Virus record (IMG/VR): IMGVR_UViG_3300027861_000011
Span: 1 to 64,000 of that record
DNA from: a virus
Strand: one strand, 5' to 3'
Length of the DNA: 64,000 nt
How positions within the stretch are numbered: position 1 is the stretch's first letter; each line of letters begins with the position of its first letter. This document shows, piece after piece, positions 107 to 22,427 of this stretch. Position numbers and translations under genes: made by a program. A model generated the notes under the pieces. That model saw only the letters and a program-made list of their open reading frames with translations. It ran no database searches and had not been told where the DNA came from.

Positions 107-922
107 TTAGATTGTTGTTTCCTCGTATGTTATTTCTCTTTCATTAGGGAAGTAATACTCTTTCTTAGCTTGGGCTAACCACCAATTAGCTTCAACTGGA
201 TTCATCTCACCTTTATATGATGCAAATAATGAACCTTCTCTCTGGTTAATATGTTTGTATCCGTATCTAGGAATAATCATTACTCTAGCATCATTGAATG
301 TCATTCTAAGTAAGAATTCATAAATGAATGTTAATTTAATATTTTTCTTAAACCCACCAAAATCATCAAATGTAGATTTTTTCATAGTCATTCCATCAAT
401 ATTAAAGTTTTGAAACGCTAAAAGAGCGTTATTATCTAAAACACCTAATTCATCTGAAAAGCTATTCGCCCATGCAGCTTCGTTTGTAAGACCCATAAAC
501 CCACCATCTGTAGCATTAACATCTACAATAATCGGTAGGAATATATCAACATCATCATGTGCTGTTTTATATTCCATGACATTCTTGAACCATTTGTTTG
601 AATATTCGTCATCAAATTCTAGAAAGCTAAACCATTCTGTCTTAACATTCTCAACCCCAAAGTTTATTTGAGTTTGGAAGTCACTTCCATTTGGGTTACT
701 TATTATACGAACTATACTCTTAGCGTCACCAAAATCAAAATCTTTAAGAGTTTTTTCCACCTCTGAACCAGTTGGTACTACAATAAGTAATTCATCTGGT
801 TTAACTATTTGTTCTGTTACGCTAGTAATAGCGCCTTTGAATAGCGTTGTATCATTATCAGTTACTAATTCGTGAACTGGAAGTACTACGGTAATATCTG
901 TTGTTAATTTTTTCTTAGCCAT
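107..922 (-). CDS. Glycosyltransferase, GT-A fold (GT2-like)
   Basis: ITVVLPVH start, 'NFGVENVKTEWFSFLEFDD' DxD-type motif, 'YEFLLR' late motif. Confidence 0.8.
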   Translation of the reverse strand: MAKKKLTTDITVVLPVHELVTDNDTTLFKGAITSVTEQIVKPDELLIVVPTGSEVEKTLKDFDFGDAKSIVRIISNPNGSDFQTQINFGVENVKTEWFSFLEFDDEYSNKWFKNVMEYKTAHDDVDIFLPIIVDVNATDGGFMGLTNEAAWANSFSDELGVLDNNALLAFQNFNIDGMTMKKSTFDDFGGFKKNIKLTFIYEFLLRMTFNDARVMIIPRYGYKHINQREGSLFASYKGEMNPVEANWWLAQAKKEYYFPNEREITYEETTI

Positions 923-928
923 ATCTAT

Positions 929-2056
929 TTATTTTTCTGAAGTTTCGACTTGTGCTGAAACTTTTGTAATTATATTATTAAATTCGGCTTTTCTAGCCTC
1001 AACCAATCCACCATAAATTTTAGCAATCTCTGTTTTTTGATTTTCCATAGTATAAGCACCTTTAGAAGCTTCAATACCTTCCATTAAATCTGTAGGTAGG
1101 TTATCTTCTAACCATACTTTCATATAAGTGTTAATTAGTTCTGGAATATTTAAATGTGTGTTAGTCCACACACCGTTATTTTTAATTTTACTATTTCCAG
1201 CTTCATCTATTTCTTCCATCCATTCTGGAATCATATTAGGCATCTTACCAATAACTGGTGTATTACACTCAATGGCTTCTAGCGGGAACGTACCAAATCC
1301 AGAAGTATCATCAAGCCATATCGCTAAACAAGACTTACCTAATTCATCGGCAAATTGTTTTCTAGGTAATCCTCTTAATTCCTTAAATGTAACCCATTTA
1401 TAAAGTGGAAATTGCAGATAAAACATCTTAGCAATTTTAGCTGCAACACCTTGTTCTCTAGTCATAATAGAAATTACTGGAATCTTAGGTTTATCAGAAT
1501 TAACGAAGTAATCTGGGATACCAACTGGTACTACATGTGTATTAATTGAAGGAAAAAGACTTTTAATAAAATTACCTTGTTTTTTACTTGTAGTAATTAC
1601 ATCGTTAAATCCATAATCACTCCATCTTCTACCGAGTGGTAATAACTCTAATAAGTAATCGTAACTTTGAGAGAAAACAATTTTCTTACAAGGGAATTTC
1701 TTAACTTGGTCCATTACATTTGAGAATATCTCTGGAATAATGATAAAATCTTGTGGTCCAACATTTAATTGTTGACCTTCAATAGATACGTGTGGTAATT
1801 CAGCGTATTCTTCACCTAGCCAATCAGCTAGACCAATACCTTCTTGGTCACCCCTTAGTTTATAATCATTTTTTTCGTGTAGGATATGTGCGTTATAACC
1901 TAAATCAATTAATGTTTTTACGTGCTCATAAATATTTGCTATACCAGCAGTTGGATTTCCTTTTGTGTCCAACGTAAAAAAGTATAAGCCAAAATCTTTA
2001 TTATCTAATTTAGATATAATTTCTTCGACTTGTTGTTTTTGTACTTGTTCTTCCAT
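929..2056 (-). CDS. Glycosyltransferase, GT-B fold-like
   Basis: 'AGIANIYEHVKTLIDLGYNAHIL', 'DFIIIPE', C-terminal 'GFGTFPLEAIECNTPVIG' donor-binding motif. Confidence 0.7.
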   Translation of the reverse strand: MEEQVQKQQVEEIISKLDNKDFGLYFFTLDTKGNPTAGIANIYEHVKTLIDLGYNAHILHEKNDYKLRGDQEGIGLADWLGEEYAELPHVSIEGQQLNVGPQDFIIIPEIFSNVMDQVKKFPCKKIVFSQSYDYLLELLPLGRRWSDYGFNDVITTSKKQGNFIKSLFPSINTHVVPVGIPDYFVNSDKPKIPVISIMTREQGVAAKIAKMFYLQFPLYKWVTFKELRGLPRKQFADELGKSCLAIWLDDTSGFGTFPLEAIECNTPVIGKMPNMIPEWMEEIDEAGNSKIKNNGVWTNTHLNIPELINTYMKVWLEDNLPTDLMEGIEASKGAYTMENQKTEIAKIYGGLVEARKAEFNNIITKVSAQVETSEK

Positions 2057-2078
2057 TTTATTTTTATTTTTATTTTTA

Positions 2079-2447
2079 TTATATTTCTTTTATTATTCCG
2101 TAATTTATAAGTGTATTATAACTTAATTTAAACGGTAATGTTGTTTTACTTAAACCTCTCTCAACCCCCAATGAATCGTCAATATCTTCATTATATGTTA
2201 AAACTACTTCAAAAAGCAGTCTAACCATTTCATATCTTGTCATATCGATTTCTCTACCCTTAGTAAATGTTTTAGTGTAAACCTCTTTACCAACGCATTC
2301 ATCACCTTCGTAAATTTCTTTAACATCAACTTCGGTTACTTCACCATAAGCAAGACTTTTATCTGAATTTAACATTGTATGCATAGCTTCAAAATCTATT
2401 ACATATTCAACCCCACCAATATCTAGTAAATTATCCATATTAATCAT
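2079..2447 (-). CDS. Hypothetical phage protein
   Basis: 122-aa acidic ORF coupled to neighbours; no motif recognised. Confidence 0.7.
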   Translation of the reverse strand: MINMDNLLDIGGVEYVIDFEAMHTMLNSDKSLAYGEVTEVDVKEIYEGDECVGKEVYTKTFTKGREIDMTRYEMVRLLFEVVLTYNEDIDDSLGVERGLSKTTLPFKLSYNTLINYGIIKEI

Positions 2448-3051
2448 CTATTTCTTCGTATGTCGTTATTTTAGTGTTAAGTATTTTTTCTCTAAGGTCC
2501 TCGTCAGCCATGAACTCAAGAATTGAGTCTAATTCAAAATCAGATTTTGAATCTTTATTGTAAGATGTGTTTATTTTGATTGATAATTTACCTTCTGGTT
2601 TTGATTCTAAAGCCATTGGGTTGGCTGTGATTAAAACATCCACACCATCCCAATATTCATTGTAGTTCTTTACAAATCGAATATTTTCTGCTCTACAAGA
2701 TAATTTAGATAGAAAGAATAATGTGGATGGGATGCTTTTATTAACTTCTCTTGAAACAATTTCAATTTCATGCTCCTCTTCATCCTTAATGTCCATATGG
2801 AACATATTGAATTTATTCATTAGGTTATTGTCAGTCTGGTCAGCATGACCAAATATCTCTAACGCTGCTTCATCATAAATAAACTTATTCATTTCATCAA
2901 CAGATTCGAAGTTAAAATACTTCATCAAATCAAATTCAGTTATGGTATCTTCTTCTATATCAGTTTCTCTAATATATTTTTCATATGTATAAGTTAATTG
3001 ACCTAAAAAGTCCCTTAACACTTCATTTAACGTTACCCCAATTCGAGCCAT
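2440..3051 (-). CDS. HAD-fold 5'(3')-deoxyribonucleotidase-like protein with degenerate motif I
   Basis: 'RIGVTLNEVLRDF' aligns by eye to HAD motif I (IxxDxDGVLxDF) with both Asp replaced; 'IEIVSRE' motif II; 'DVLITANP' where IDD is expected. Confidence 0.6.
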   Translation of the reverse strand: MARIGVTLNEVLRDFLGQLTYTYEKYIRETDIEEDTITEFDLMKYFNFESVDEMNKFIYDEAALEIFGHADQTDNNLMNKFNMFHMDIKDEEEHEIEIVSREVNKSIPSTLFFLSKLSCRAENIRFVKNYNEYWDGVDVLITANPMALESKPEGKLSIKINTSYNKDSKSDFELDSILEFMADEDLREKILNTKITTYEEIDD

Positions 3052-3087
3052 ACCTATTTATTTTTTATTATTTTAATAATAATATTA

Positions 3088-3116
3088 ATAGTAAGTAGGT
3101 ATAGCTATAAAGTAAA
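3088..3116 (-). promoter_or_regulatory. Putative sigma70-like promoter TTTACT-N17-TACTAT
   Basis: Hexamers with 17-nt spacing in the intergenic gap upstream of 3051. Confidence 0.45.
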
Positions 3117-3118
3117 CC

Positions 3119-3982
3119 TTAACCTTTAAATTTTCTTTTAAAAAATATTCTTAATCTTCTGAATAATTTGTTTTTTTTCTTAGGTTTTTTATCTTTTAAA
3201 TAAACTGGTTTTAGAACTGGCCTAGATTGTTTGATTTTAGTTGGTCTATTATTAATTACTGTTTCGTAATTATCTAATATCTTACTAATAATTTTATTTC
3301 TTACTATATCATCATTAGTGAATTCAAAGAAACCAATCTCTGTAATATTTCTATGTCTATTCATTACGTCATATAACCCACTGTCATTTACATATTTATA
3401 TTTATCTGATTGGTCTAAATCCCCAGAAAGAACATATTTAGAATTTGTACCGATTCTAGTTAGAAGTGTTTTAACTTGTTCTGGTGACATATTTTGTACC
3501 TCTTCAACAATCACTATAGAATTATCGATTGTCTTACCTCTAAGGAACCCTAATGGCTCAACTTTTATTATTTCAGCATCTTCTAATTGAGTCCTTGCTG
3601 ATTTACCAATTATCTTATCAATAATATCTAAAGACGATGCAACGTGTGGTTCCATCTTTTCTCTCATATCTCCAGGTATGAAACCTAATTTCTCCCCAGC
3701 CTCAACTGCTGGTTTAACAATAACAAGTGTTTCATGTTGATTTGTTTTGTTTTGTATTAATTCAATTGCTCTAGCAATAGCTACAAATGACTTACCTACA
3801 CCAGCTGGTCCAGACGAGATAATAATTTCTTTATCCGTTATTAAATTTGCGAATTCTTTTTGTTTTACATTCTTACACTTAAGTCTACGCTTTGTTTTTA
3901 AAACTTTATTTATAAAACTTACGTCTTGTTCTGGTTCTTGATTTGTCGTTTTAGTGGTATTCTTTCTGGTGCCTTTAGTCAT
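3119..3982 (-). CDS. phoH: PhoH-family ATPase
   Basis: Walker A 'SGPAGVGKS', 'EKLGFIPGDMREKMEP', 'FLRGKT', 'VEEVQN', 'LSGDLDQSD', 'IVRN'. Confidence 0.95.
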   Translation of the reverse strand: MTKGTRKNTTKTTNQEPEQDVSFINKVLKTKRRLKCKNVKQKEFANLITDKEIIISSGPAGVGKSFVAIARAIELIQNKTNQHETLVIVKPAVEAGEKLGFIPGDMREKMEPHVASSLDIIDKIIGKSARTQLEDAEIIKVEPLGFLRGKTIDNSIVIVEEVQNMSPEQVKTLLTRIGTNSKYVLSGDLDQSDKYKYVNDSGLYDVMNRHRNITEIGFFEFTNDDIVRNKIISKILDNYETVINNRPTKIKQSRPVLKPVYLKDKKPKKKNKLFRRLRIFFKRKFKG

Positions 3983-3985
3983 ATA

Positions 3986-4957
3986 TTAATTTTTAGCTTC
4001 TTTGTTTTTATATTTATTATCTAATTCTCCCATTCTGTACTTCTCTAATAAATATTCACCATTTACTATAACTTCAGCTTTAAATTTAATTACATAAAAA
4101 CCATTGTATTCAATTATCTTATCAAAACTAGTAATCATATATTGGAATTGACGGAAGTCTTTAGCACCTACAGTTTTATATGAAGTGAAACCCACTCCTA
4201 CAATATCAAGTATGTCAGAAACCTTTGGCTTCTTTATAGCTCTTTTAATTTCAGATATAAGGAGTCTAGTCTTTCTGTCATATTCATCTGGGTATTTACT
4301 AATGTAAAATTCAAGTAATCTATCGGAATCATTAATCTTTCTAACGTTAAGCTTCTTGGAATATTTTTCTATTTCAAACTTAGGTCTTAAATCTCTAACA
4401 ACTTTAATTGGTCTTTCGGCTTTAATGAAGGATTGATAATCGTCACTACTTATTTCACCTAGTGTTGCTGATTCAGAACCATCGTCATGATTAATTGACT
4501 CTTTCTGTTCTTCCTCATTATAGGCATTAATATTATCATTATTCATAATATCACTACCACTCATTGTTATCTCGTTATTATCAACAACTAATTCAAGAGG
4601 GTAATCGTCATGTGTATCCATTTTTACTTTACCTAGTAGAATCTTTTGACTAACAGAGTCTGGTGCTTTAGTATCTAGAATAGGGAAACCATCTTCATCA
4701 ACACCTAAGTCTTTGATTATGTAATCATTTGAAGCGTCAAGTATCTTAAGTATTCTCCATCTTAGGAGTTTAACTTCCTCAGTTATTTCACCTTGAACTA
4801 GGGAGTCAGCTAGAGTACCTTGATTGTATCTTTGGTGGTTACCTGTGTCATTTCCTAAATCCACAGATTCTTGACCTAATGCATTCTTCTCAACACTAGC
4901 CATTGCTATTGCTATTGCACTTATTTGTCTTTTAAGCCATTTCATAATTTTTTTCAT
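3986..4957 (-). CDS. Hypothetical phage protein
   Basis: 323-aa ORF with amphipathic N-terminus; no catalytic motif recognised. Confidence 0.7.
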   Translation of the reverse strand: MKKIMKWLKRQISAIAIAMASVEKNALGQESVDLGNDTGNHQRYNQGTLADSLVQGEITEEVKLLRWRILKILDASNDYIIKDLGVDEDGFPILDTKAPDSVSQKILLGKVKMDTHDDYPLELVVDNNEITMSGSDIMNNDNINAYNEEEQKESINHDDGSESATLGEISSDDYQSFIKAERPIKVVRDLRPKFEIEKYSKKLNVRKINDSDRLLEFYISKYPDEYDRKTRLLISEIKRAIKKPKVSDILDIVGVGFTSYKTVGAKDFRQFQYMITSFDKIIEYNGFYVIKFKAEVIVNGEYLLEKYRMGELDNKYKNKEAKN

Positions 4958-5927
4958 AATATTCTAACCAATATTTAACCATTTCATCTAACATTGTTTC
5001 AAACGTATATTTAGGTTTCCAATCTAATTCATTTCTAATTTTACTTGAATCTCCTTTAAGGTCTCTTAACTCTTCTGGTCTTAAGTGTTTTGAATCCATT
5101 ATAATATAATCCTCATAATTTAAATCTAAAACGTTAAATGTGTATTCACATAACTCTTTAACTGAGTGAGAGATTCCAGTAGCACAAACATAATCATCAG
5201 GTTTATCTGTTTGTAACATAAGCCACATTGCTTCTACATAATCCTTAGCATGTCCCCAGTCTCTAGTAGCGTCTAAATTACCTAATGATAATTTATCTTG
5301 TAACCCTAATTTAATTCTAACTGCGGCCTTAACAACCTTATTGGTTACGAAGTTCGTGCCTCTTCTTGGTGATTCGTGATTAAAAAGAATTCCATTCCAT
5401 ATTTTCATATTATATGAATTTCTATAATTCCTACAAATATTATAAGAGAAAACCTTTGCACATCCATAGGGACTTACAGGGTCTAACTTTGTACTTTCTC
5501 TTTGGTATCCATCGCAATCAATATTATTACCAAACATTTCTGAAGAACTAGCTTGGTATATTTTTGATTTAGGTGATACCATTCTTACGGCTTCTAAAAG
5601 GTTAAGTGTGCCAACTCCTGTAACATTAGCGGTATAAATTGGTTGGTCGAAACTAACCCTTACGTGTGATTGAGCTGCTAGATTATAAATTTCATCTGGT
5701 TGTACTTTGGTTAGAACTCTAACTAGTGATGCCATGTCTGTAAGGTCAGAATATTCTAAATTAATTGACTCATTTCTAACTAAATGTTCAATTCTGGTAG
5801 TTTGTGTTTCTGATACTGAATTTCTTTTTACAGTCCCCCATACTTCGTAATTCTTATTTAATAGGAACTCAGCAAGATATGAGCCATCTTGGCCGTTAAT
5901 ACCTGTGATTAAAGCTTTTTTACTCAT
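4932..5927 (-). CDS. gmd: GDP-mannose 4,6-dehydratase
   Basis: 'KKALITGINGQDGSYLAEFLL', 'YNLAAQSHVRVSF', 'YQASSSEMFG', 'SPYGCAK', 'NHESPRRG', 'RDWGHAKDYV'. Confidence 0.97.
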   Translation of the reverse strand: MSKKALITGINGQDGSYLAEFLLNKNYEVWGTVKRNSVSETQTTRIEHLVRNESINLEYSDLTDMASLVRVLTKVQPDEIYNLAAQSHVRVSFDQPIYTANVTGVGTLNLLEAVRMVSPKSKIYQASSSEMFGNNIDCDGYQRESTKLDPVSPYGCAKVFSYNICRNYRNSYNMKIWNGILFNHESPRRGTNFVTNKVVKAAVRIKLGLQDKLSLGNLDATRDWGHAKDYVEAMWLMLQTDKPDDYVCATGISHSVKELCEYTFNVLDLNYEDYIIMDSKHLRPEELRDLKGDSSKIRNELDWKPKYTFETMLDEMVKYWLEYYEKNYEMA

Positions 5928-5964
5928 ATGTTAAAGGTACTGCATATAAATAAAAAAATAAATA

Positions 5965-6579
5965 CTAAATCTTATAAAATAAGTCAAAATCTTTTTTAAA
6001 TGTTTTATAAATCTTATCCCTTACTTCGTCACTTAATACAGAATCATTCTTACTACTATTTAAGTGTTTTAAATCATTATTAAAACCGTACTTCTCAGCA
6101 ACAACCGAAAAGTCTTCAGCTAATGTCTCTTGTTTCATTACATGGTCAACAATTAAATTACCATCATTATCCGTTACCCATTTGTGTTGGTGGAGTGGAT
6201 TTGAACCATCCCAGAACGGATTATGTTTTTTATGTGACGGCCATTCCCAATGTGTAGGAAAATCTTTGTTCGCCCATTCTTCAATAGTATCTGGGTAGAA
6301 GTCTTTAACATCTTGACCTATATTTTTATGAGTCTTATGAAAATCATACCAAGATTTAATTAAATCATAGGGATTTCTAACACAAGCGAAACTATATCTA
6401 TTATCCCATTCATAAGTACTAATTTGATTCTTAATCGTAATTGCTTTATTATGTTGAAATGGATAGAAATTTTTAACCTTAAGTATTTTATCCCATATTG
6501 TATTTGTTCCCGTTTTAGGTATGGCAACAAATATGTAATCATTTTTCTTTATCTCTACAATATGTTTATTTAATCCCAT
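5965..6579 (-). CDS. Sulfotransferase (Sulfotransfer_2-like)
   Basis: 5'-PSB-like 'FVAIPKTGTNTI' and 3'-PB-like 'VRNPYDLIKSWY'. Confidence 0.8.
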   Translation of the reverse strand: MGLNKHIVEIKKNDYIFVAIPKTGTNTIWDKILKVKNFYPFQHNKAITIKNQISTYEWDNRYSFACVRNPYDLIKSWYDFHKTHKNIGQDVKDFYPDTIEEWANKDFPTHWEWPSHKKHNPFWDGSNPLHQHKWVTDNDGNLIVDHVMKQETLAEDFSVVAEKYGFNNDLKHLNSSKNDSVLSDEVRDKIYKTFKKDFDLFYKI

Positions 6580-7175
6580 TTAAAAACTTTTACATTTTTA
6601 CCCCTAATAGTATTTAATAAATCTTGTGTTGTTTTAACATTTTCACCATTAACAAATCTCTCATGTGTTTCCACATATAATTCATCCATGATAGATACAG
6701 TACCCTCTTTCATTAAGTGTCTTAACACATCATATTCAGCACCTTCAATATCCATCTTAACAATTACTTGGTCGTACTCACTAAATTGTTCTAAAAACTT
6801 TGAGAAGTTTATTGCTTCGATTGGGACGATATTATCAAGTCTTTTTCCATGGCCATCAATGTTCTCAATCTTATCATTTTTAATTCTACATCCAACACTA
6901 GTTAATTCACCAGGTTCTCCGCTACCACCCATACCATTGGGTGCATCATATTTCTTAGACCTAACACCCCTAGCAAATTCAAGAGTAGATTCTTCAATCC
7001 AAATCGCTTTCTGATATCCAGTAGCGTTTTTAATATTAGTATAATTTAATTCAATATCTGGGTTTGGTTCGAATGAATGTATTTCCCATTCATCATTATT
7101 AAAGAATTTAAACTTCTTGTTAAATTCTTGTAATCCTTGTCCTAGGTTTGCACCACAATCTATAAAAACTTTCAT
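6570..7175 (-). CDS. FkbM-family methyltransferase
   Basis: 'FIDCGANLGQ', 'SFEPNP', 'VKMDIEGAEYDVL', 'LYVETH'. Confidence 0.88.
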   Translation of the reverse strand: MKVFIDCGANLGQGLQEFNKKFKFFNNDEWEIHSFEPNPDIELNYTNIKNATGYQKAIWIEESTLEFARGVRSKKYDAPNGMGGSGEPGELTSVGCRIKNDKIENIDGHGKRLDNIVPIEAINFSKFLEQFSEYDQVIVKMDIEGAEYDVLRHLMKEGTVSIMDELYVETHERFVNGENVKTTQDLLNTIRGKNVKVFKWD

Positions 7176-7199
7176 TATCGTTAATTTATTAATCTTATT

Positions 7200-7829: not shown

Positions 7830-7830
7830 A

Positions 7831-12228: not shown

Positions 12229-12229
12229 A

Positions 12230-13473: not shown

Positions 13474-13479
13474 AAAATA

Positions 13480-15011: not shown

Positions 15012-15781
15012 TTAGATATAACTTCTTCATTAGTAATATCTATAGTATCATTATTTGTTGCATGATTACCTTTAAATTCAGTACCAGTACTATAACACTC
15101 ATCCTTTACTAATGAAGCTACTTCACTTTTTGAGGATAAGTAAGCAGTACCTATCATGTCATACATTTCTTGTTTATTCGAAATAAACCCATATTCTGAA
15201 ACGTTGTCATACTTGTCTATAAGTGGTTTAACGAACTCATTATAATAATTCTGGTTAGATACCGCTCCGAAGAGTAAAACCTTCTTAAAACCATCATTAA
15301 CTGCTCTCTCGATTGATATGTGTGTTTGTTTATTAATATCGAATGAACCAATTATCCCAGCAGTATTTTTTGCTTCTTCAGATTTGGGTTTATTTTCAAA
15401 TAAAACCTTTACGTTAGGTATTATCTCATAATTACCGAAATAATTCTTGTGATATTTTCTTTGTTTATCATTAAGGAAAACAACTGTATCCCAGAATGGT
15501 CTTACATTACCCACTTCAAATATATCCTTCTCGTGACAAGCTAAAATTATCTTCTTAGGTTTTGGAATTCCACTAGGTAACTCAATAAAATGAGCAATAA
15601 TTATATCGTCTTGATTTATAGTGAAATCCTTATGCATTGCACCATTACATTTATCTAAATGCCATTCATGAGGGCCATAAAGTATTGAGTCGTAACCAGC
15701 TTCCTTTAACTCTTTCATTAGGTTAATAAAAGCAAATGTAGAACCACCTTTATTGCTCCATCCAGTTATTATCTTTATCAT
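14987..15781 (-). CDS. Glycosyltransferase, GT-B fold-like
   Basis: 'GWSNKGGSTFAFINLMKELKEAGYD', 'SEYGF', 'SKSEVASLVKDEC'. Confidence 0.6.
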   Translation of the reverse strand: MIKIITGWSNKGGSTFAFINLMKELKEAGYDSILYGPHEWHLDKCNGAMHKDFTINQDDIIIAHFIELPSGIPKPKKIILACHEKDIFEVGNVRPFWDTVVFLNDKQRKYHKNYFGNYEIIPNVKVLFENKPKSEEAKNTAGIIGSFDINKQTHISIERAVNDGFKKVLLFGAVSNQNYYNEFVKPLIDKYDNVSEYGFISNKQEMYDMIGTAYLSSKSEVASLVKDECYSTGTEFKGNHATNNDTIDITNEEVISKWLKVLEL

Positions 15782-16869
15782 GCTAACGTAATTTGGTATT
15801 TACCGATTATCTCTTCAATTGTTGATTCATTTTTAAGTGTTACTGTTGGTAACTCTGGATAAAGTTTAGCCAAATGTGTAGCCATTTCTGTATTATCGGC
15901 ATGTATTATATCAAAATCAGCTTCACTTATTCTATATAACTTATTTGGTTCAGATGTTACCGTACCATTAGGGCTATTTAACCCCCATTTACCATCACCT
16001 ACTTTATAACCTGGTGGTTGGTTTAATGGGGCAAACTTACCACCTTTAGCCATAAGCCTTTTAAAATTGGGTTCATCATCAGTTAATACTGGTGAAACCA
16101 CAGTAATGTTATGGTTCATACTTTTTAACTTACCAACCAAATCTAAAGATTCTGAAATATTTAGACTACCAATTAATATCTTAAACCTTTCATTACCCTT
16201 GAAAACTCTATCTATTTTAATTGGTAAATTAGTTTTATACTTCTCAGCAAATTCTTTTCTATTATCTTCCCATTCTTGGTTAGTTTCACCTATCGATTGG
16301 TGATTGACTCTTACGTTAGTATGAACACCAACCTTAACACCAGCTAAGTAATTTCTGAAACAAAAATCAACATCATAGAAATGAAAACCTTTAACGTCTA
16401 AATTAAATTGTTCTTTAATTCTACCCCTATGTACAGAGAATAAAACACCATCAACTATTATAGCTTCCTCAACATCATTCCCTAAATCATCACTGTATTT
16501 AGAAAGCCATGTTTTACCCTCGTGAGTATGTGCAACTCTACCATACATCTTCTTCTTATCATCCCACCATCTACCCGTTTCACTCATATATTTAGTTCCA
16601 GCAACACCAAGAATACCGTACTCTGGGTTATTATCAAATAATTTACTTATCTTATTGGCTATTTGTTTAGTTTCGATAGTAATATCATCGTGACAAAACA
16701 CTATAATGTCATTCTTAGCTTCATCTAAAGCCTTTTGATAGAACTTAGTAAGACCCTCTCCTTTATTTATATATTCAATAATTTCTACCTTTGGATTTCC
16801 ACACGCTTTCTTTAAGTGTTTAATGTGGTCTGGGTTATGTTCTCTTGTACAATATACTATACTAATCAT
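15778..16869 (-). CDS. GT2-like glycosyltransferase with C-terminal degenerate GT-B-like segment
   Basis: 'MISIVYCT', 'IVFCHDD', 'IVDGVLFSV', 'GFHFYDVDFC'; C-terminal 'KILIG...NHNITVVS'. Confidence 0.78.
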   Translation of the reverse strand: MISIVYCTREHNPDHIKHLKKACGNPKVEIIEYINKGEGLTKFYQKALDEAKNDIIVFCHDDITIETKQIANKISKLFDNNPEYGILGVAGTKYMSETGRWWDDKKKMYGRVAHTHEGKTWLSKYSDDLGNDVEEAIIVDGVLFSVHRGRIKEQFNLDVKGFHFYDVDFCFRNYLAGVKVGVHTNVRVNHQSIGETNQEWEDNRKEFAEKYKTNLPIKIDRVFKGNERFKILIGSLNISESLDLVGKLKSMNHNITVVSPVLTDDEPNFKRLMAKGGKFAPLNQPPGYKVGDGKWGLNSPNGTVTSEPNKLYRISEADFDIIHADNTEMATHLAKLYPELPTVTLKNESTIEEIIGKYQITLA

Positions 16870-17549
16870 TTTATAAAACTTTTATATTTCTCATTATATA
16901 TTTCTACGGCTTTATCGTAGAACGCTATTTCTACCTCAAGTAGTTCTTTTAATTTTTCTTTATCCTCATTACTAATATTTTTTTTAGTCTTTGTAGTGTT
17001 AGTTATTCTATATTGTGGTTTCCATTTATTAATATCACAACATAAGTCAATAAACTCATCATACTTATTAGTAAAACCAAAAAGGAATTTATCATCCTTA
17101 ATATTTTTTAAAGCAATATCTAATTTTAATTCATATGGCGTATCTTCTGGAAGTCCACAAACATGATGTAATTGATAATATTTCTGACTTCCATTATCGT
17201 GAAACCAATCTATTATATTAACCTTATCATTAATCCAACCTCTATCATTTGCATATTTATAAGCTGATATAGTTCTTGAAATTGGTTCCCTAAACATTGT
17301 AATATATTGATAATTCTTAGTACCTAAATATGGGTGTAATCCATATTGAAAATGTTCAGAAAATAAATTAAAATGTTTGAATACTTCCATACCATTAGGT
17401 TCTGACTCTAAAAACTTTTGGGTATCTCTAACGTCAGTTAAGTACCATAACTTACTATAACCAAAATAAGCTTTAGGTATATTCGTTTGTAAAAACGACC
17501 TAAAGCTTGTTCCAGCAGTCTTACCTATATGTACAAAAATATATTTCAT
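16866..17549 (-). CDS. Sulfotransferase (Sulfotransfer_2-like)
   Basis: 'FVHIGKTAGTSF', 'FREPISRTISAY'. Confidence 0.85.
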   Translation of the reverse strand: MKYIFVHIGKTAGTSFRSFLQTNIPKAYFGYSKLWYLTDVRDTQKFLESEPNGMEVFKHFNLFSEHFQYGLHPYLGTKNYQYITMFREPISRTISAYKYANDRGWINDKVNIIDWFHDNGSQKYYQLHHVCGLPEDTPYELKLDIALKNIKDDKFLFGFTNKYDEFIDLCCDINKWKPQYRITNTTKTKKNISNEDKEKLKELLEVEIAFYDKAVEIYNEKYKSFIK

Positions 17550-18298
17550 TAAAATTCGTATTTGTAATTATAAAGTTCGATGTCCTTACCCCAAATTTGT
17601 TCTACTATCTCTCTAGTCGCTGGATTGTAGAAAAACTTATAATCTGGTATGATAGTATCATCACCTTCTCTTGTTATAATATCTTTAGCTCTCTTATCAA
17701 AAGCAATGTCACCAAAGTCTTTTATCTTCTTGGTGTAGTGGAATGATTTACCGATATCACCTTCAACACTTAAGGTTGTACCATGAGCTTTATTAATCTT
17801 ATCAATTTCATTCTTAATATTTTCAATCTTTACAATGTGGTTCCAATTATTCTCAATATCAATTGAGTCATGTTGCACCTCTTGATGGAACTCAGTTTTA
17901 CCTTTACCTACATCAATTCTTGAAACATAATTCAAGTAATCAATAAAGCTAATATTATTAGGTTCTTCTTCACCAGTCATTTGCTTTATTTGAGCAATTA
18001 CTGGATGATTCTCAGCGGTGTAAGCGTCTCTCATATAGTGAACGTAACTACTTACTGCTCTCCTATATGGGTCACGTACAACTTTGAACTTAATCATATC
18101 CTTTTTATGTAGGTAATTAGTTAATACAGGATTCTTAGGTTCATACACACGTTGTCTGTATTGGTGTATGAATGGATGAAACTCAATAGCATCCTCCAAT
18201 AGACCTAATTCGTGGAAGAACATCTTACATGCCGTTGTACACGCACACTTAGGAGTCCAACCCATCATAATATTTTTATCCTTGTTTACTAGTATCAT
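17549..18298 (-). CDS. Sulfotransferase (Sulfotransfer_2-like)
   Basis: 'WTPKCACTTA', 'VVRDPYRRAVSSY', 'SFIDYL', 'KIENI'. Confidence 0.85.
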   Translation of the reverse strand: MILVNKDKNIMMGWTPKCACTTACKMFFHELGLLEDAIEFHPFIHQYRQRVYEPKNPVLTNYLHKKDMIKFKVVRDPYRRAVSSYVHYMRDAYTAENHPVIAQIKQMTGEEEPNNISFIDYLNYVSRIDVGKGKTEFHQEVQHDSIDIENNWNHIVKIENIKNEIDKINKAHGTTLSVEGDIGKSFHYTKKIKDFGDIAFDKRAKDIITREGDDTIIPDYKFFYNPATREIVEQIWGKDIELYNYKYEF

Positions 18299-18434
18299 TT
18301 TTTAAAATGTGAATTAAACCTTTAATGTTATAATGTTTACCACTAACTAATGGTAACCTAAAAGTTAAAACACCCCTTTCATCTAAATCAGTTAAGTCAT
18401 TTATTAGATTTTTAATTAACTTTTCCTTTTTCAT
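18276..18434 (-). CDS. Possible 52-aa small ORF
   Basis: Not in track. MKKEKLIKNLINDLTDLDERGVLTFRLPLVSGKHYNIKGLIHILKNDTSKQG fills the intergenic gap and overlaps the next start. Confidence 0.4.
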   Translation of the reverse strand: MKKEKLIKNLINDLTDLDERGVLTFRLPLVSGKHYNIKGLIHILKNDTSKQG

Positions 18435-18461
18435 CCTTATTATCAATTTATCTAATATACA

Positions 18462-19511
18462 TTATTTATTAAATCTTTCATATGCGTTGTTACTAATCTT
18501 AATAAACTCTACTTTATTAACAAACTCTTCTAGATTTATAGAGTTGGAGTAGCTCATTGCTGAACGCAAGTAAGATTCAAAGTTTTCAACCCACCCTTCG
18601 ATAGTATATTCTACTTTCCTAAATCTTACAATACCTTCAGATGTTTTAAGTATTGTATTACCCCATTTCTTTTGAACTTCTTTAGTACTCATACCCCTGA
18701 ACTTCTTGTATACATTCATACCGATTTTATAGGCTTTTTCAGCACCCCCCTGGGTTATTGGCATACTTTTAAGAACATAGTTACTACCACAAGACTCAAG
18801 ACATTTATTTAATATACTACCAAGCATAACATAATCAGCACCTAAAGCCAAAGCCTTAATTATATCCGAAAAACTTTGCATGCCACCATCAGCTACAATT
18901 TTAGCTGGTTCATCTATTATACATGATGCGTAATAACATTCCCTAATCAAAGAGGCCATTGGGAAACCTACACCCGTTTGTTGGGTTGTTAGGCAACCTC
19001 CACCATTACCAATTCCAACTCTAATATAATCAGCACCAGCATCTGATAACACCTTATATGTTTCAGAATTAGCCACATTACCAACCATTAAAATCATCGT
19101 ATCACCCCATAATGATTTAGCTATTTTAATGATATCAACCATTTCTTTTAAATGACCATTGGCTGTATCGATTAATACAAATAATTTATCTTCAAGAACT
19201 ATATCAAAGTCAACATTATTTATGAATTTTTTTTTAAATTCATTTAGTGAGTATGATGCGAAAATAGAATTACTTACCCCACCTTCACCTCTAGGTAAAC
19301 ATATATTTATTCCTTGTTCTTTAAATAATTCATAATTGTGCCTATTCACAACTGTATCCATTGGAGCTGTAAATAATGGTAACCTACCATTACTATCAAG
19401 TATGTCTATTTTGGACCTAGAATTTATATCACCAGACATACTTGGTTTTATTAAAATATCATTAAAATCTAATTTAATGTCACTATGTGCTACACAATCT
19501 TTCATCATCAT
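18462..19511 (-). CDS. IMPDH/GMP-reductase family oxidoreductase (no CBS domains; GuaC-like N-terminus)
   Basis: 'KLDFNDILIKP', 'APMDTV', 'IDTANGH', 'VGNVA', catalytic loop 'VGIGNGGGCLTT', 'ADGG', 'GADYVMLG', 'FRGMST', 'SEG', 'LRSAMSY'. Confidence 0.9.
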   Translation of the reverse strand: MMMKDCVAHSDIKLDFNDILIKPSMSGDINSRSKIDILDSNGRLPLFTAPMDTVVNRHNYELFKEQGINICLPRGEGGVSNSIFASYSLNEFKKKFINNVDFDIVLEDKLFVLIDTANGHLKEMVDIIKIAKSLWGDTMILMVGNVANSETYKVLSDAGADYIRVGIGNGGGCLTTQQTGVGFPMASLIRECYYASCIIDEPAKIVADGGMQSFSDIIKALALGADYVMLGSILNKCLESCGSNYVLKSMPITQGGAEKAYKIGMNVYKKFRGMSTKEVQKKWGNTILKTSEGIVRFRKVEYTIEGWVENFESYLRSAMSYSNSINLEEFVNKVEFIKISNNAYERFNK

Positions 19512-20098
19512 TTTATACCAGTACTACCAAGTCCACCTTCATTTCTTTCCGTATTATCATTTAATTCAAATACCTTATTAAATTTAATCATTTTCTTTGA
19601 TGTAACATTAGCTATAACTGCTTGAGCTATTCTATCCCCAATCTCTATATTAAAATTAGTAGTACCTTGATTAATAAGTATTATCATTATTTCACCTCTA
19701 TAATCAGAATCGATTGTGCCAGGTGAATTTAATACGGTAATACCATACTTTGCAGCTAAACCACTTCTGGGTCTAATCTGCATTTCTAAATTAGAATGTA
19801 ACTCAAAATAAAGTCCTGTTCTAATTGTATTAAATTCACCTGGACCTAATGTAATATCCTCATTAGCTCTTAAATCAAAACCAGCCGAACCATCAGTGGC
19901 ATACTCTGGGTCTTGGTTATTAGATTTATTAACAAAATTAACTGGAAATTTAAACATGTCTAAATTACTATCATTATTATTATCGGCTGTGTGACTTACA
20001 TTACTATATTTACTATGAAATTCTTCCATTGTATAAGAATTTGATTTATCCATTGCTGATAATAATTTATTTTTTATTTCTTCAATACTATATTCCAT
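19508..20098 (-). CDS. dut: Trimeric dUTPase with N-terminal extension
   Basis: Five motifs: 'AGFDL', 'RSGLA', 'GTIDSDYRGE', 'RIAQ', 'RNEGGLGSTG'. Confidence 0.95.
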   Translation of the reverse strand: MEYSIEEIKNKLLSAMDKSNSYTMEEFHSKYSNVSHTADNNNDSNLDMFKFPVNFVNKSNNQDPEYATDGSAGFDLRANEDITLGPGEFNTIRTGLYFELHSNLEMQIRPRSGLAAKYGITVLNSPGTIDSDYRGEIMIILINQGTTNFNIEIGDRIAQAVIANVTSKKMIKFNKVFELNDNTERNEGGLGSTGIK

Positions 20099-20101
20099 AA
20101 C

Positions 20102-20656
20102 TTATTTTTCTTCAACCATCGCAATCATATTCGCAATTCTTAATAAGGCACCTAATTTCTCACCCTTACTAGTCATTGGTCTTTGTGCGAATTCACTATT
20201 ATAATTATATATTGCAAATACTTCATCTTCAGTTAAGTCAACCCCAGACTTTAGTGCGTAATATACTGAACGTTCAGAAACACTCATACTTAAAGCAGTG
20301 TTATTCCAAGTATAATTCTCACCTAAATTGTTTTTTCTCCAGTCATTAGTTTGTTCGATAAACATATTACATTTACCTATTTGGTGAAGTAACGACACTC
20401 TAATGATTGAGGCATTATCAACTTGCTTTGCTTCAGGCAAACTAGCGTTAACTGAAATAGCATGTTTAGTGGTATTGATTATGTGTTCAATTAATCCACC
20501 TTCATAGGCACCATATAACTCTTTTTTAGAAGTACATGGGGCACCTATGAAACCATCACCTAATAACTTAAGTAATTCATCATTAATAACACCGTGTTTA
20601 ATACCAGTCTCGTTAAATTTAGTTGCGTTATTTAAAACTTTTTCTTTTGTAAGCAT
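20102..20656 (-). CDS. HD-domain-like protein with degenerate HD motif
   Basis: 'AYEGGLIEH' first His; 'LLHQIGK' where LLHDLGK is expected; 'IANMIA' where AD is expected. Confidence 0.65.
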   Translation of the reverse strand: MLTKEKVLNNATKFNETGIKHGVINDELLKLLGDGFIGAPCTSKKELYGAYEGGLIEHIINTTKHAISVNASLPEAKQVDNASIIRVSLLHQIGKCNMFIEQTNDWRKNNLGENYTWNNTALSMSVSERSVYYALKSGVDLTEDEVFAIYNYNSEFAQRPMTSKGEKLGALLRIANMIAMVEEK

Positions 20657-20677
20657 AATAATATTTATTTGGTTAAT

Positions 20678-21067
20678 TTATTTTTTAAAAATATCACTTA
20701 TTTTAACATATTCTGTTAATGGTCCAACTTTTACTTCAGAAATCTTTCCAGTGTCATCAAGTGTCACACCAGTTCTTTCCTCAAATGTCTTACCTAATTC
20801 ATCAGTATTTAGTTGTTTCGTTAGGACACTACCAAAATTTTTGTTAATATTTGTGGTTTTTTTAACTTTATTAGCTGCTGCATTAACTTCGTCCATTTCG
20901 TCCATCTTTTTCATTATACTGTAAGCTCGTTTAAATACGACATCATCTTCAGTCATAGTAACTTCTTCTATTTCTTTTGAGTTAATAGTAGTCTCTTCTT
21001 CACTTAAATAGTCAGCAATAAAATCAAAGACTATTTTTAATTTTTTAGTATTTTTCATTATCATCAA
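20678..21067 (-). CDS. Hypothetical phage protein
   Basis: 129-aa ORF in operon; no motif recognised. Confidence 0.65.
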   Translation of the reverse strand: MMIMKNTKKLKIVFDFIADYLSEEETTINSKEIEEVTMTEDDVVFKRAYSIMKKMDEMDEVNAAANKVKKTTNINKNFGSVLTKQLNTDELGKTFEERTGVTLDDTGKISEVKVGPLTEYVKISDIFKK

Positions 21068-21078
21068 ATTTACGCTTT

Positions 21079-22365
21079 TTATTTAATAGTTTCAAGTTCA
21101 ATTGGAATTATTTTCATATCTTTAACTAATTTATGATATAAATCACGTCTACTAGATGTTACAGCATCAATACTGTAAGTATCTTTAACGGTGTTGTGAA
21201 GTTTTTCACTCATCTCAACCACAAGTTCTGGATTTAGAATCAACTTTTTAATATTCTTATACCAATCTTTATGGTTTTTATTAGTCTTAATAAGTAACGC
21301 ATTACCTAATTCATTCTTAATTGGACCTTCGTTTTTACCGCCCTTATCAAACATATTTTTTAAATCTATTTGGTAAGGTCCGTAATCTTGGGCAATAATG
21401 GCTTTTTTGTGAAATCCAGCTTCAATAACCTTTAACTGAGATTTAACCTTATTAAATAAATGCTCTTCAATTGGGGCTAGTGATACATCAAAAAGGTTAT
21501 AATTACTTGCATATGTACTAATTGGTTTAGTCCATACTCTTCTATATGGTTCATTTTCTACGCCTTCAAATTCTTTCTTGTTAAATGTAAGTAAATGATT
21601 CTTATATTCTTCACTAACTGTTGTATAGTCATTTGTAAAGATTTGTTCGTATTTATACCAAACACTTTCTTTAGGTCGTATTGGCCTTTGACTTTGTTTA
21701 CCAGAGGCTTCGTCAATCATTGTAATAACACCTCTAAGGTCAAACCCGCAAACAACAAATTGAACCTTATCTATAAGGCCATCATTTTTAAGTCTACCTA
21801 CAATACCTTTAAGAATCTCCAAATCTTTTAAATGAGATGAACCTCCTAACCATCCAATTCTAAGTCTTTCAGACGGTTCTGGGTTAGGGATATATTGTTT
21901 TTCATTTGGGTCTATTGCATTAGGTAAAATATGAACATTATTAATATCATTAAACTTACCAATCTCTTCAGCAAATATTGTGGTGGTAGTGGTAATATTT
22001 CTAGCAAGTTTAATATTATTATGAATCATCTTATCCATACCAGAATTCTTAATCATAAGATGGGCTGGGTGATGGTGTCCTGGAGCCCAGTGGTCATCAA
22101 TATCCATAATAGTTGTTATTCCTAATTTTTCTATTCTATTAAGAGTTTCTTCTACTTTATCGTATGGTCCAAGTGTTCTGTGATAATGAATTAAATCGTA
22201 TTGTTTAAGCCAATTATCATCATTTAATTTTGGTTCGTAATCAATATCAATATGAAATTCATCTGGGAAATTCTTCTCTAGTGTAATGTGTGGTTTGGTA
22301 GAACGAAAATAACCAACACCTGTACGGTCACTAGGTACCACAAGTACTTTAATTTTTTTACTCAT
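21079..22365 (-). CDS. Glycosyltransferase, GT-B fold (GT4-like)
   Basis: 'GVGYFRSTKPH', 'MDIDDHW', 'LPNAID', 'RIGWLGGSSHLKDL', 'FNKVKSQLKVIEAG'. Confidence 0.85.
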   Translation of the reverse strand: MSKKIKVLVVPSDRTGVGYFRSTKPHITLEKNFPDEFHIDIDYEPKLNDDNWLKQYDLIHYHRTLGPYDKVEETLNRIEKLGITTIMDIDDHWAPGHHHPAHLMIKNSGMDKMIHNNIKLARNITTTTTIFAEEIGKFNDINNVHILPNAIDPNEKQYIPNPEPSERLRIGWLGGSSHLKDLEILKGIVGRLKNDGLIDKVQFVVCGFDLRGVITMIDEASGKQSQRPIRPKESVWYKYEQIFTNDYTTVSEEYKNHLLTFNKKEFEGVENEPYRRVWTKPISTYASNYNLFDVSLAPIEEHLFNKVKSQLKVIEAGFHKKAIIAQDYGPYQIDLKNMFDKGGKNEGPIKNELGNALLIKTNKNHKDWYKNIKKLILNPELVVEMSEKLHNTVKDTYSIDAVTSSRRDLYHKLVKDMKIIPIELETIK

Positions 22366-22398
22366 TTTCTTTTTAATTAATTTTATTATTTATACTCA

Positions 22399-22427
22399 AG
22401 TATAATGAATATATTAATTAATGTAAA
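22399..22427 (-). promoter_or_regulatory. Putative sigma70-like promoter TTTACA-N17-TATACT
   Basis: Close-to-consensus hexamers with 17-nt spacer upstream of 22365; could drive the glycan/nucleotide operon. Confidence 0.55.

Follow-up and report, generated by a model that had tools for sequence, protein, structure and literature searches.

A block of soluble glycan enzymes with a conserved core and a swappable cassette in a jumbo phage

Main finding and genomic context

In this study, we identified a phage gene block encoding approximately 20 soluble enzymes of glycan synthesis and tailoring, which would assemble a tailor-made glycan within the infected cell, either on the phage particle or on the host surface; sequence cannot decide between these two destinations. 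Cytoplasmic glycosylation of the proteins of the phage particle is our leading, though tentative, reading. The window (the whole 64-kb stretch of DNA that was analysed) starts at the left end of a 194-kb contig, where the operon is truncated; the contig is ~55% complete, with ~45% of the genome missing. Its source is a large uncultured aquatic phage, a jumbo myophage with a probable Bacteroidota host. Related contigs reach 368 kb (306-368 kb at the large end), and they include G001, with a CheckV completeness of 100%, as well as more distant relatives (identities of 36-44%), among them L089 (248-kb contig). Among GenBank phages, the tail-fibre-like protein at 34297-37200 and two core transferases had no match, and PolB matched only Salinibacter and cyanobacterial phages at ~25% identity.

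The ORFs from 107 to 24928 form an unbroken minus-strand series, with 1-nt overlaps at 8403, 10649, 11296 and 17549 and 4-nt overlaps at 12934-12937, 15778-15781 and 16866-16869, just as a preliminary description had it (co-oriented genes with overlaps of 1-4 nt). The inventory given there (about 11 glycosyltransferases, Gmd, four sulfotransferases and five methyltransferases) was also confirmed: 10 glycosyltransferases are firm and an eleventh is a weak candidate, and Gmd, four Sulfotransfer_2 proteins and five methyltransferase-like proteins accompany them. No membrane segment was detected in any ORF of 1-24928 (19-residue windows, Kyte-Doolittle mean >= 1.6), in agreement with the earlier remark that none is obviously polytopic. 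The description of a 22-kb glycan island was correct in enzyme content, but the block is a composite, in which a hypervariable cassette (3986-18298) is flanked by two modules that are shared with at least 127 related contigs, and it had been missed that the window starts at a contig end. Genes for PhoH, an IMPDH/GMP-reductase-family protein and dUTPase also lie inside the block. The cassette is absent in L089, where dUTPase directly adjoins PhoH. Across 11 relatives, it always encodes glycan chemistry of a kind that differs each time (Gmd/Fcl, GT10, GT11, GT17, GT25, DegT, FdtA, Glf, WecB, FkbM).

Conserved modules and the neighbouring fibre genes

Three core transferases are located in the conserved modules, all on the minus strand. 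The last gene before the contig end (107-922) encodes a GT2-family glycosyltransferase (Pfam Glycos_transf_2, E 1.6e-8), for which IMG/VR contains 127 or more relatives (57-74% identity) and which is syntenic in all examined. Its neighbour (929-2056) encodes a retaining GT4-type GT-B glycosyltransferase assigned as Agt/AmGGT-like by profile, AF2 model and Foldseek. Homologs of this protein fall into 663 representative clusters, 156 with E<1e-30, and identity in relatives is ~70%. Its profile (A2) matched AmGGT (PDB 8xsg) with an E of 1.3e-27, and Foldseek ranked 8xsg ahead of GtfA (4pqg) and SdgB (7vfo), both cytoplasmic protein O-glycosyltransferases, for the AF2 model (pLDDT 96.3). The third transferase (21079-22365; PHROG 7162 glycosyltransferase, E 8.5e-39; 65% identity in G001 and 43% in L089) belongs to the conserved operon head at 20102-24928, together with seven small ORFs that matched no family. 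All three are kept at 43-73% identity in every relative examined, L089 included. Conservation of these enzymes as a set points to an acceptor that is conserved too, and phage proteins offer one across differing hosts.

The core module also contains two conserved proteins without assigned function (2079-2447 and 2440-3051, minus strand; no Pfam or PHROG match), kept at 30-65% in each relative examined, except that the 122-aa gene is missing in L075. The cassette is anchored on its right-hand side by a PhoH-like ATPase (3119-3982, minus strand; Pfam PhoH, 207 bits), which is conserved in all relatives, and on its left-hand side by the IMPDH/GMP-reductase-family enzyme and dUTPase (18462-20098, minus strand; both by Pfam).

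A divergent promoter region (24929-24991) separates the operon from a tail-fibre gene (24992-28015) encoding a Peptidase_S74 chaperone domain. The motif ATATTTATA(A/T)...AAAAG was found 23-24 nt upstream of both start codons, and the divergent arrangement is retained in G001. This phage-type promoter is found ahead of a DnaB-like helicase gene as well, and thus late timing is not proven by it. In the fibre-like proteins, [ST]-G-x-T occurs far above composition expectation (e.g. 54 observed versus 8.7 expected in 49473-54638), although this motif resembles the structural fibre repeat FVTGGTYN.

The variable cassette

The cassette genes, all on the minus strand, begin with a 323-aa protein without assigned function (3986-4957). 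It is found in about half of the relatives (41-48% identity in L011, L013, L008, L018, L065 and L075) and has no match to any family, PDB or atlas entry. GDP-mannose 4,6-dehydratase (Gmd, 4932-5927; Pfam GDP_Man_Dehyd, 413 bits) follows. The preliminary description had proposed a search for fcl; Gmd proved to be the sole SDR on this contig, whereas an Fcl-like SDR adjoins it in several relatives.

Seven of the firm glycosyltransferases fall in the cassette: a GT8-like protein (9022-9870; PHROG 1903, with homologs at 60-63% identity that carry PF01501), GT4 (11296-12228), GT6 (12230-12937), GT11 (13480-14277), GT2 (14265-15011), all four by Pfam, a GT-B protein of GT4-type fold (14987-15781; AF2 pLDDT 91, fold matches to BshA, TarM and PimA) and a Glyco_tranf_2_5 protein (15778-16869; Pfam), which is ~48% identical to fused GT2_5-GT4 proteins of relatives. 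The weak GT2-like candidate lies at 9858-10649 (E 0.065). The GT6 protein matched Bacteroides ovatus BoGT6a (4ayj) with 212 bits and retains the metal-independent FFNAN motif.

The region 5965-9032 is a partly duplicated tailoring unit, with a sulfotransferase (5965-6579), an FkbM methyltransferase (6570-7175; Pfam), a methyltransferase-like protein (7200-7829), another sulfotransferase (7831-8403) and a second methyltransferase-like protein (8403-9032) that is a paralog of the one at 7200-7829; identities within the paralog pairs are 36% and 41%. In the protein atlas, both methyltransferase-like proteins group with class I SAM methyltransferases (TM 0.72-0.82 for 7200-7829). The remaining members of this class are a weak candidate (10649-11296; Methyltransf_31, under its cut-off) and a Methyltransf_11 protein (12934-13473). 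Two more sulfotransferases occur at 16866-17549 (31.0 bits) and 17549-18298 (47.1 bits), for which no counterparts were found in the 11 related contigs or in IMG/VR; their closest named cellular homolog, from Roseibacillus, is 32% identical. Scores of the other two are 22.7 and 23.8 bits, against a Sulfotransfer_2 cut-off of 22 bits, and all four retain both PAPS motifs, namely the PK-type 5'-phosphosulfate loop and the R-D/N/E-P...S 3'-phosphate motif.

Genes for initiation, polymerization and export

The preliminary description had noted the lack of Wzx/Wzy, exporter and initiating phosphoglycosyltransferase genes, which held up and extends to the relatives: Bac_transf, Wzx (PF01943) and Wzy_C were absent in G001 (rated 100% complete) and in G002-G004, and the lone clear ABC system of G001 is an importer (BPD_transp_1 plus nucleotide-binding domain). 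A lipid-carrier-related gene was not found in the complete 368-kb relative. A recognisable protein-initiating transferase was not found either, with GT41/NGT absent from this contig and from four relatives. From the lack of polytopic proteins, a cytoplasmic acceptor had been deduced earlier, and this step fails. In bacterial O-antigen loci, soluble glycosyltransferases are the rule and their acceptors are lipid-linked intermediates, so the lack of polytopic proteins is no sign of a cytoplasmic acceptor.

Proposed pathway

The sequences show the enzyme families and their solubility, the architecture of core and cassette, and the lack of export genes in a relative rated complete. From these we infer which acceptor is used, in what order the enzymes act and what glycan results, in the following scheme of a fully soluble glycosylation system of two layers. 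The GT2 (107-922), GT-B (929-2056) and operon-head (21079-22365) transferases would begin and lengthen an inner glycan, itself conserved, in the cytoplasm and without lipid carrier; the acceptor would be a conserved phage product, most probably proteins exposed on the particle, for instance the neighbouring fibre-like proteins. The cassette, swapped among related phages, would attach an outer glycan with fucose or 6-deoxyhexose residues, possibly ending in a blood-group-like GT11 plus GT6 structure. Capping would then fall to the four PAPS-dependent sulfotransferases and the five methyltransferases, with the host as the source of GDP-mannose, UDP-sugars, PAPS and SAM.

Comparison with known systems

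Chloroviruses (PBCV-1 capsid glycans) and Megavirinae (Mimivirus fibril glycans) use virus-encoded Gmd, soluble glycosyltransferases and methyltransferases to make virion glycans without host membrane pathways. Glycan clusters of these giant viruses are clade-specific, much as the cassette varies among the phage relatives; the likeness is one of gene content, and the hosts there are eukaryotic. To our knowledge, sulfation is not a described feature of their glycans. Mycobacteriophage clusters reportedly contain methyltransferases too, and mass spectrometry is said to have located the targets at capsid and tail-tube C-termini. As in the block described here, the glycosyltransferases of mycobacteriophages are soluble and phage-encoded, and there they modify proteins of the phage's own particle while still in the cytoplasm; this O-glycosylation (Che8, Corndog, Myrna; Freeman et al. 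2023) is cited in a passage of PMC12619734. Those clusters are small (few genes), in contrast to the ~20 enzymes, predicted sulfation and swappable cassette here. In the NGT/Agt system of Actinobacillus/Haemophilus, AmGGT/Agt is a soluble retaining GT4 enzyme, and its acceptor is glucose on a protein or an oligosaccharide, which it elongates; AmGGT is >50% identical to A. pleuropneumoniae Agt, a cytoplasmic elongator of Asn-linked glucose on adhesins (PMC12159676). The core GT-B (929-2056) is a relative by profile and fold, at only ~16% identity in structural alignment, and no equivalent of that system's NGT (GT41) partner was found here or in four relatives.

Aquatic T4-like myophages (pelagimyophages and cyanomyophages such as P-SSM2) have hypervariable islands of LPS type that are, like this one, non-syntenic, occupy a constant position flanked by conserved modules and adjoin tail-fibre genes; LPS-type glycosyltransferases and enzymes of sugar-nucleotide synthesis abound in them, and export machinery is absent. 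By comparison with GenBank phages, the present phage belongs to another lineage, and its cassette lies between dUTPase and PhoH, bracketed by clade-wide core transferases; it has four sulfotransferases, which are unmentioned in PMC7029224. The phage may be a member or near kin of the moraphages, aquatic jumbo phages of Flavobacteriia (PMC12619734). As described there, they share the size range of its relatives, aquatic metagenomes, Bacteroidota-type host signal and core PhoH, dUTPase, PolB and sigma factors. Their core genome includes four orthogroups of putative glycosyltransferases, and they have variable genomic islands, whose content that paper does not analyse.

Weighing the alternatives

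That the glycan sits on virion proteins, as first proposed, gained some indirect support from the clade-wide transferases, the Agt/AmGGT-like core enzyme with GtfA and SdgB as further fold neighbours, and the promoter region common with the tail fibre. The lack of export genes, the resemblance of the variable cassette to clade-specific giant-virus clusters and the [ST]-G-x-T enrichment of the fibre-like proteins also speak for it. Against this reading count the negative search for a protein-initiating transferase (Agt-type enzymes extend and do not initiate), the repeat-like nature of the fibre motif and the ~45% of the genome that is missing. Nearly as probable is remodelling of the host surface, in which soluble phage enzymes would modify undecaprenyl-linked O-antigen, capsule or O-glycan intermediates at the inner membrane face, and the altered glycan would leave through the host's flippase, ligase and oligosaccharyltransferase. 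LPS and O-antigen synthesis is the classic setting of the families GT6, GT8, GT11 and GT25, whose bacterial members are soluble and act on undecaprenyl-linked acceptors; initiation, flipping and ligation could thus come from the host, and the absence of such genes from the phage would be expected. The GT6, GT8-like, GT11, GT2, GT4 and FkbM genes are usual in bacterial O-antigen/capsule loci, the GT6 protein is a close homolog of a Bacteroides enzyme, and the hypervariable cassette parallels host glycotype diversity. Published accounts take this view of P-SSM2 (PMC1079782) and of the host recognition cluster in pelagimyophages, where host O-chain modification is likewise a proposal (PMC7029224). 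However, core transferases conserved down to distant phages, one of them lacking the cassette, are less expected with variable host acceptors; the characterised nearest kin of the core GT-B use proteins or small molecules rather than lipid-linked sugars, and the lack of a lipid-carrier-related gene in the 368-kb relative also argues against it.

That the enzymes yield something soluble or secreted appears unlikely; it would be a free oligosaccharide, a glycolipid or a small molecule with sugar attached, serving for example as decoy, osmolyte or storage sink. Fold neighbours of both GT-B proteins are often small-molecule enzymes (BshA, MshA, sucrose-phosphate synthase, tetrahydrobiopterin glucosyltransferase), and AmGGT favours free oligosaccharides (PMC12159676), but strain-level hypervariability is the mark of surface structures under diversifying selection, and an exporter for such a product was not found. 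Even less probable is DNA hypermodification, with the core transferases adding sugar to a modified phage base and the cassette lengthening it. The genes for dUTPase, the IMPDH/GMP-reductase-family enzyme and PhoH are interleaved in the block as nucleotide-pool genes, relatives have a thymidylate-synthase-family gene, and PMC12619734 cites hypermodification of phage DNA with glycans. However, that gene matches the whole ThyA model with 310 bits, as ordinary ThyA does, no DNA glucosyltransferase was among the matches listed in the core GT-B fold search, and the blood-group-type GT11/GT6 pair with its sulfotransferases and methyltransferases implies a large branched glycan, of which we found none described on DNA.

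Virion protein glycosylation thus remains our tentative first choice. If it is the host surface that is remodelled, superinfection by competitors would be blocked, or progeny would be kept off infected cells and debris.

Phage, contig and probable host

The studied contig is a single IMG/VR viral record of 193,838 bp with 31% GC, classed as linear and estimated by CheckV to be about 55% complete; the window is its first 64 kb. It encodes a family-B DNA polymerase (PolB), an SNF2 helicase, PhoH, fibre proteins with an endosialidase chaperone domain and virion structural proteins, which identifies it as a fragment of a jumbo tailed phage. Judging from sequence features, the host probably belongs to Bacteroidota, because Bacteroidota-type -7 boxes (GTATATTTG) precede many start codons, the GT6 of the glycan block is a close homolog of a Bacteroides ovatus enzyme, and MAG bins of Flavobacteriaceae and Chitinophagaceae contain related contigs.

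Megablast of window positions 1-22400 and tblastn of the fibre-like protein 34297-37200 found no match among GenBank phages, and PolB is only about 25% identical to that of Salinibacter phages; by these searches the phage lies outside the pelagimyophage and cyanomyophage groups. By shared traits alone, it resembles the moraphages (PMC12619734): its relatives reach 306-368 kb, have PhoH, dUTPase, PolB and sigma factors in their core, and conserve glycosyltransferases, comparable to the four core glycosyltransferase orthogroups described there.

Core modules of the same lineage (GT-B, GT2, sigma-like gene and others, 53-63% identity) were also seen under two unrelated organisms, on a 103-kb contig of a Methanobacterium MAG and a 64-kb contig of the Prochlorococcus sp. 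AG-409-L21 single-cell assembly. These are probably co-sorted or mis-binned phages; the single-cell case could hint at another host.

Gene content of the glycan block

The preliminary description of a co-oriented, overlapping run of glycan genes was borne out: gap-poor minus-strand ORFs fill 107-24928, with 1-nt and 4-nt overlaps where it had placed them. Its count of about 11 glycosyltransferases essentially held, with ten firm and one weak in the block, where 9858-10649 (minus strand) is a weak candidate. The GT8-like gene is 9022-9870, whose homologs carry PF01501, and two GT-B enzymes (929-2056 and 14987-15781) are invisible to Pfam. The Gmd is unambiguous, five methyltransferase-like proteins were counted as claimed, and the statement that no ORF is polytopic agrees with the lack of any hydrophobic 19-residue segment in the ORFs of 1-24928.

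The four sulfotransferases likewise stood, all scoring above the 22-bit Sulfotransfer_2 cut-off and keeping both PAPS-binding motifs, with the 5'-PSB/3'-PB pairs IPKTGTNT/VRNPY..S, KPRCASTS/VRNPY..S, GKTAGTS/FREP..S and TPKCACTT/VRDPY..S. Among the 12 contigs compared they are confined to the studied one, and two IMG/VR scans returned no relatives; the contigs that carry close homologs are short metagenome ones, and among named cellular organisms the nearest homolog, in Roseibacillus, is 32% identical. An APS kinase (PF01583) was not found on the contig, which is about 55% complete, and PAPS may be supplied by the host. Two of the sulfotransferases (5965-6579 and 7831-8403) form one paralog pair and two methyltransferase-like proteins (7200-7829 and 8403-9032) another, so this stretch is the product of a partial duplication of a sulfotransferase-methyltransferase unit.

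Four ORFs of the block (2079-2447, 2440-3051, 3986-4957 and 9858-10649) received no class or a weak one. Single-sequence PDB searches gave no useful match for 3986-4957, 9022-9870, 14987-15781, 7200-7829 and 17549-18298, nor did profile searches for 14987-15781 and 9022-9870. An atlas model of 3986-4957 (pLDDT 0.34) matched nothing, and the profile of the core GT2 gave a single weak match, to the N-terminal part of TagF (E 2e-5).

Several details of gene layout were also recorded. The only sizeable gap of the block (18298-18462) separates the last sulfotransferase from the GMP-reductase-like gene and is mostly filled by a 56-aa ORF (18276-18446, minus strand). The Glyco_tranf_2_5 enzyme 15778-16869 (363 aa, Pfam match at residues 15-211) adjoins the separate compact GT-B 14987-15781; its counterparts in the relatives G001 (L011:1147-2823) and L018 are fusion proteins of 549-558 aa that also contain a GT4 domain, and in a third relative, G002, the homolog of 14987-15781 lies within a 678-aa open frame.

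From this enzyme set we infer a possible glycan structure. Gmd would produce GDP-4-keto-6-deoxymannose, to be converted to GDP-fucose by Fcl, either from the host or from the missing part of the genome; GT11 would add alpha-1,2-fucose to a galactoside, after which the GT6, which is metal-independent and resembles BoGT6a, would attach alpha-1,3-GalNAc or Gal to give a blood-group-like tip. The remaining transferases would build the scaffold, and the capping of hydroxyls would fall to the four sulfotransferases and five methyltransferases. A search for fcl elsewhere in the genome failed on the contig itself, where Gmd is the sole SDR, and succeeded in several relatives, where an Fcl-like SDR lies beside Gmd. 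Without Fcl, the sugar could be a 6-deoxyhexose other than fucose.

A conserved core and an exchangeable cassette

Synteny maps of 16 viral and three genome-derived loci revealed a conserved backbone interrupted at one fixed site. Its order is plus-strand fibre genes, the divergent promoter region, small ORFs, the core transferase 21079-22365, gene 20102-20656 and dUTPase, then the cassette (3986-18298 in the studied contig), PhoH, genes 2079-2447 and 2440-3051, the core GT-B 929-2056, the core GT2 107-922 and a sigma-like gene. The cassette is non-syntenic, is flanked by these conserved modules and differs in content in every relative. Its length between the anchors is about 14.5 kb in the studied contig and about 6 kb in G001; in G002, it must be at least 12 kb, the distance by which a homolog of 14987-15781 precedes PhoH on the upstream side. 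It falls to 0 kb in L089, a more distant 248-kb contig binned as Flavobacteriaceae: dUTPase abuts PhoH there, the GMP-reductase-like gene is also missing, and all three core transferases are kept.

A Pfam tally of 88 cassette ORFs from 11 relatives returned glycan chemistry throughout, of a different kind each time, comprising Gmd/Fcl-type SDRs, FkbM, GT2, GT4, GT10, GT11, GT17, GT25, DegT, FdtA, hexapeptide acyltransferases, UDP-galactopyranose mutase and UDP-GlcNAc 2-epimerase. The core itself is widespread: the GT2 has at least 127 IMG/VR relatives (57-74% identity), and the GT-B family comprises 663 representative clusters, with all ten sampled coming from metagenome contigs. The GT2 of every relative is followed by the sigma-factor-like gene and a further set of about eight conserved genes without counterpart on the studied contig, whose end cuts the operon. 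Thus, absence of a gene from the window alone tells little.

Export, polymerase and initiation genes

The reported absence of Wzx/Wzy, an ABC exporter and an initiating phosphoglycosyltransferase was confirmed and extended to relatives up to G001, a genome of 368,549 bp rated 100% complete. The search for initiating enzymes covered the Bac_transf type (PF02397); it found none in G001 or in G002-G005, and in the island of the studied contig neither Pfam scans nor membrane segments indicated one. A Wzx-type flippase (PF01943) was not found in 11 relatives, and neither Wzy_C (PF04932) nor the GT41 of the HMW1C/NGT type (PF13844) in the studied, incomplete contig and G001-G004. A phage ABC exporter was rejected: the only clear ABC system among the long relatives is an importer, in which the G001 ATPase pairs with an importer-type permease, and the studied contig has no ABC ATPase. 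The contig does encode a 274-aa ABC_membrane_3 protein (175362-176186, L001:1362-2186; 61 bits), at a place where G001 has the importer-type permease and ATPase.

By these searches the system differs from Wzx/Wzy- or ABC-dependent O-antigen and capsule loci, as they found no Bac_transf, flippase, polymerase or ABC exporter. Nor does it match the seroconverting Gtr-type phage clusters, which combine the membrane proteins GtrA and GtrB with a polytopic serotype-specific transferase, given that the ORFs of 1-24928 have no hydrophobic 19-residue segment.

Promoters and fibre neighbourhood

The operon head and the fibre gene 24992-28015 (Peptidase_S74) point away from each other, and the promoter region common to both is kept in a relative whose proteins are 40-65% identical.

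Two promoter-like classes occur over the whole contig (for example at window 24951, 24968, 40538, 45619, 56846 and 59128), a phage type (ATATTTATA) and the Bacteroidota type (GTATATTTG), the latter concentrated at contig 156-192 kb. The phage type, ATATTTATA(A/T)..AAAA, sits 12-25 nt before many starts and precedes a fibre gene, a tail-related protein and an endolysin. It was rejected as proof of late expression, since it also precedes a DnaB-like replicative helicase. A terminator-like hairpin, AGGCTCAT...ATGGGCCT with a T-rich tail, follows gene 22484-23077 (22395-22450, minus strand); downstream of it, before the core transferase 21079-22365, lies TATAAATAATAAAA in the orientation opposite to the usual phage motif.

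Large fibre-like proteins (window 24992-30177, 49473-54638 and 60555-62357; contig 114880-122975) are enriched 4- to 12-fold in [ST]-G-x-T relative to composition-matched shuffles, with 54 occurrences against 8.7 expected in a 1721-aa protein. The motif often takes the form [ST]GGTYN preceded by a hydrophobic residue, as in FVTGGTYN repeats. We kept it as a lead and not as a sequon, since the enrichment is real and the repeat context fits a structural fibre repeat; it could mark a structural repeat, serve for modification, or do both.

The acceptor of the glycan

Since the enzymes are soluble and depend on nucleotide sugars, PAPS and SAM, the glycan is assembled inside the cell, either in the cytoplasm or on the cytoplasmic side of the membrane. 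We tentatively favor the cytoplasmic glycosylation of phage particle proteins, at somewhat below even odds. Several observations point to an acceptor that the phage itself makes. The core transferases are kept by phages whose hosts must differ, and are present even where the cassette is not. Among characterised enzymes, the core GT-B is closest to AmGGT/Agt, whose family elongates glucose on cytoplasmically N-glycosylated adhesins: the AmGGT structure 8xsg was matched by its profile (E 1.3e-27 over 298 profile positions) and was the top Foldseek hit (TM 0.68/0.74), and the next fold neighbours, GtfA and SdgB, act in cytoplasmic O-glycosylation of serine-rich proteins. The divergent promoter region shared with the fibre gene and the [ST]-G-x-T motifs packed into the neighbouring fibre-like proteins point the same way. 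Against this acceptor, or for the host surface, count the failure to recognise a protein-initiating enzyme, the occurrence of the promoter class before a replicative helicase and the resemblance of [ST]-G-x-T to a structural repeat.

Remodelling of host glycans ranks only slightly lower in our estimate. GT6, GT8, GT11 and GT25 are O-antigen-type families; their members are soluble and normally work on lipid-linked acceptors. In the literature, comparable islands are interpreted as modifying host O-chains and preventing co-infection (PMC7029224, PMC1079782). That the same enzymes make a soluble product seems unlikely to us, and glycosylation of phage DNA very unlikely. Relatives carry a ThyA-family gene (310 bits), and no DNA glucosyltransferase was among the matches listed in the fold search with the core GT-B. 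Within the preferred reading of glycosylated particle proteins, it is a long shot that a fucose-type glycan made wholly in the cytoplasm, sulfated, methylated and specific to the strain, decorates the fibre-like proteins and mimics algal or host sulfated polysaccharides, so that flavobacterial SusC/D-type capture machinery binds the virion as food. If so, the swappable cassette would be a host-range determinant written in sugar, not protein.

Relation to known systems and implications

Virion glycosylation has been proven for some mycobacteriophages and giant viruses. No homology to the transferases of mycobacteriophages Che8, Corndog and Myrna was found, as two core transferases (107-922 and 929-2056) had no tblastn match at E <= 1e-5 among 50,697 GenBank phage records. 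With NGT/Agt cytoplasmic N-glycosylation the present system shares the Agt-type GT4 elongating enzyme, the core GT-B; the initiating GT41 was not found in the studied contig or in G001-G004. Hypervariable islands of LPS-type genes adjoining fibre genes are known in pelagimyophages and cyanomyophages (PMC7029224, PMC1079782), and the present system resembles the host recognition clusters of aquatic myophages in its fixed-site, non-syntenic cassette, adjoining tail-fibre genes and LPS-type glycosyltransferases, which in this phage group include GT8-like, GT11, GT25 and other families. Moraphages have core glycosyltransferases and variable islands, whose content was not examined there (PMC12619734). 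What is new here is the explicit core-plus-cassette architecture at the dUTPase/PhoH slot of this jumbo-phage group, the cassette-free relative, the kinship of the core GT-B with Agt/AmGGT and a cassette with four sulfotransferases.

On either reading, the dUTPase/PhoH slot, the three core transferases and the Agt-like enzyme offer clonable experimental handles, and the cassette provides sulfo-, methyl- and glycosyltransferases that are compact and soluble. Should the enzymes act on the host surface, the glycotype of the host would be rewritten by a lytic jumbo phage in the course of infection, which would be relevant to superinfection exclusion and to constant-diversity dynamics in marine bacteria. 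If the glycan is on the virion, particle glycosylation would no longer be limited to mycobacteriophages among phages but would also occur in a widespread aquatic jumbo-phage group, with sulfation added, in a modular design in which conserved inner machinery is combined with an exchangeable outer cassette, comparable to LPS core and O-antigen.
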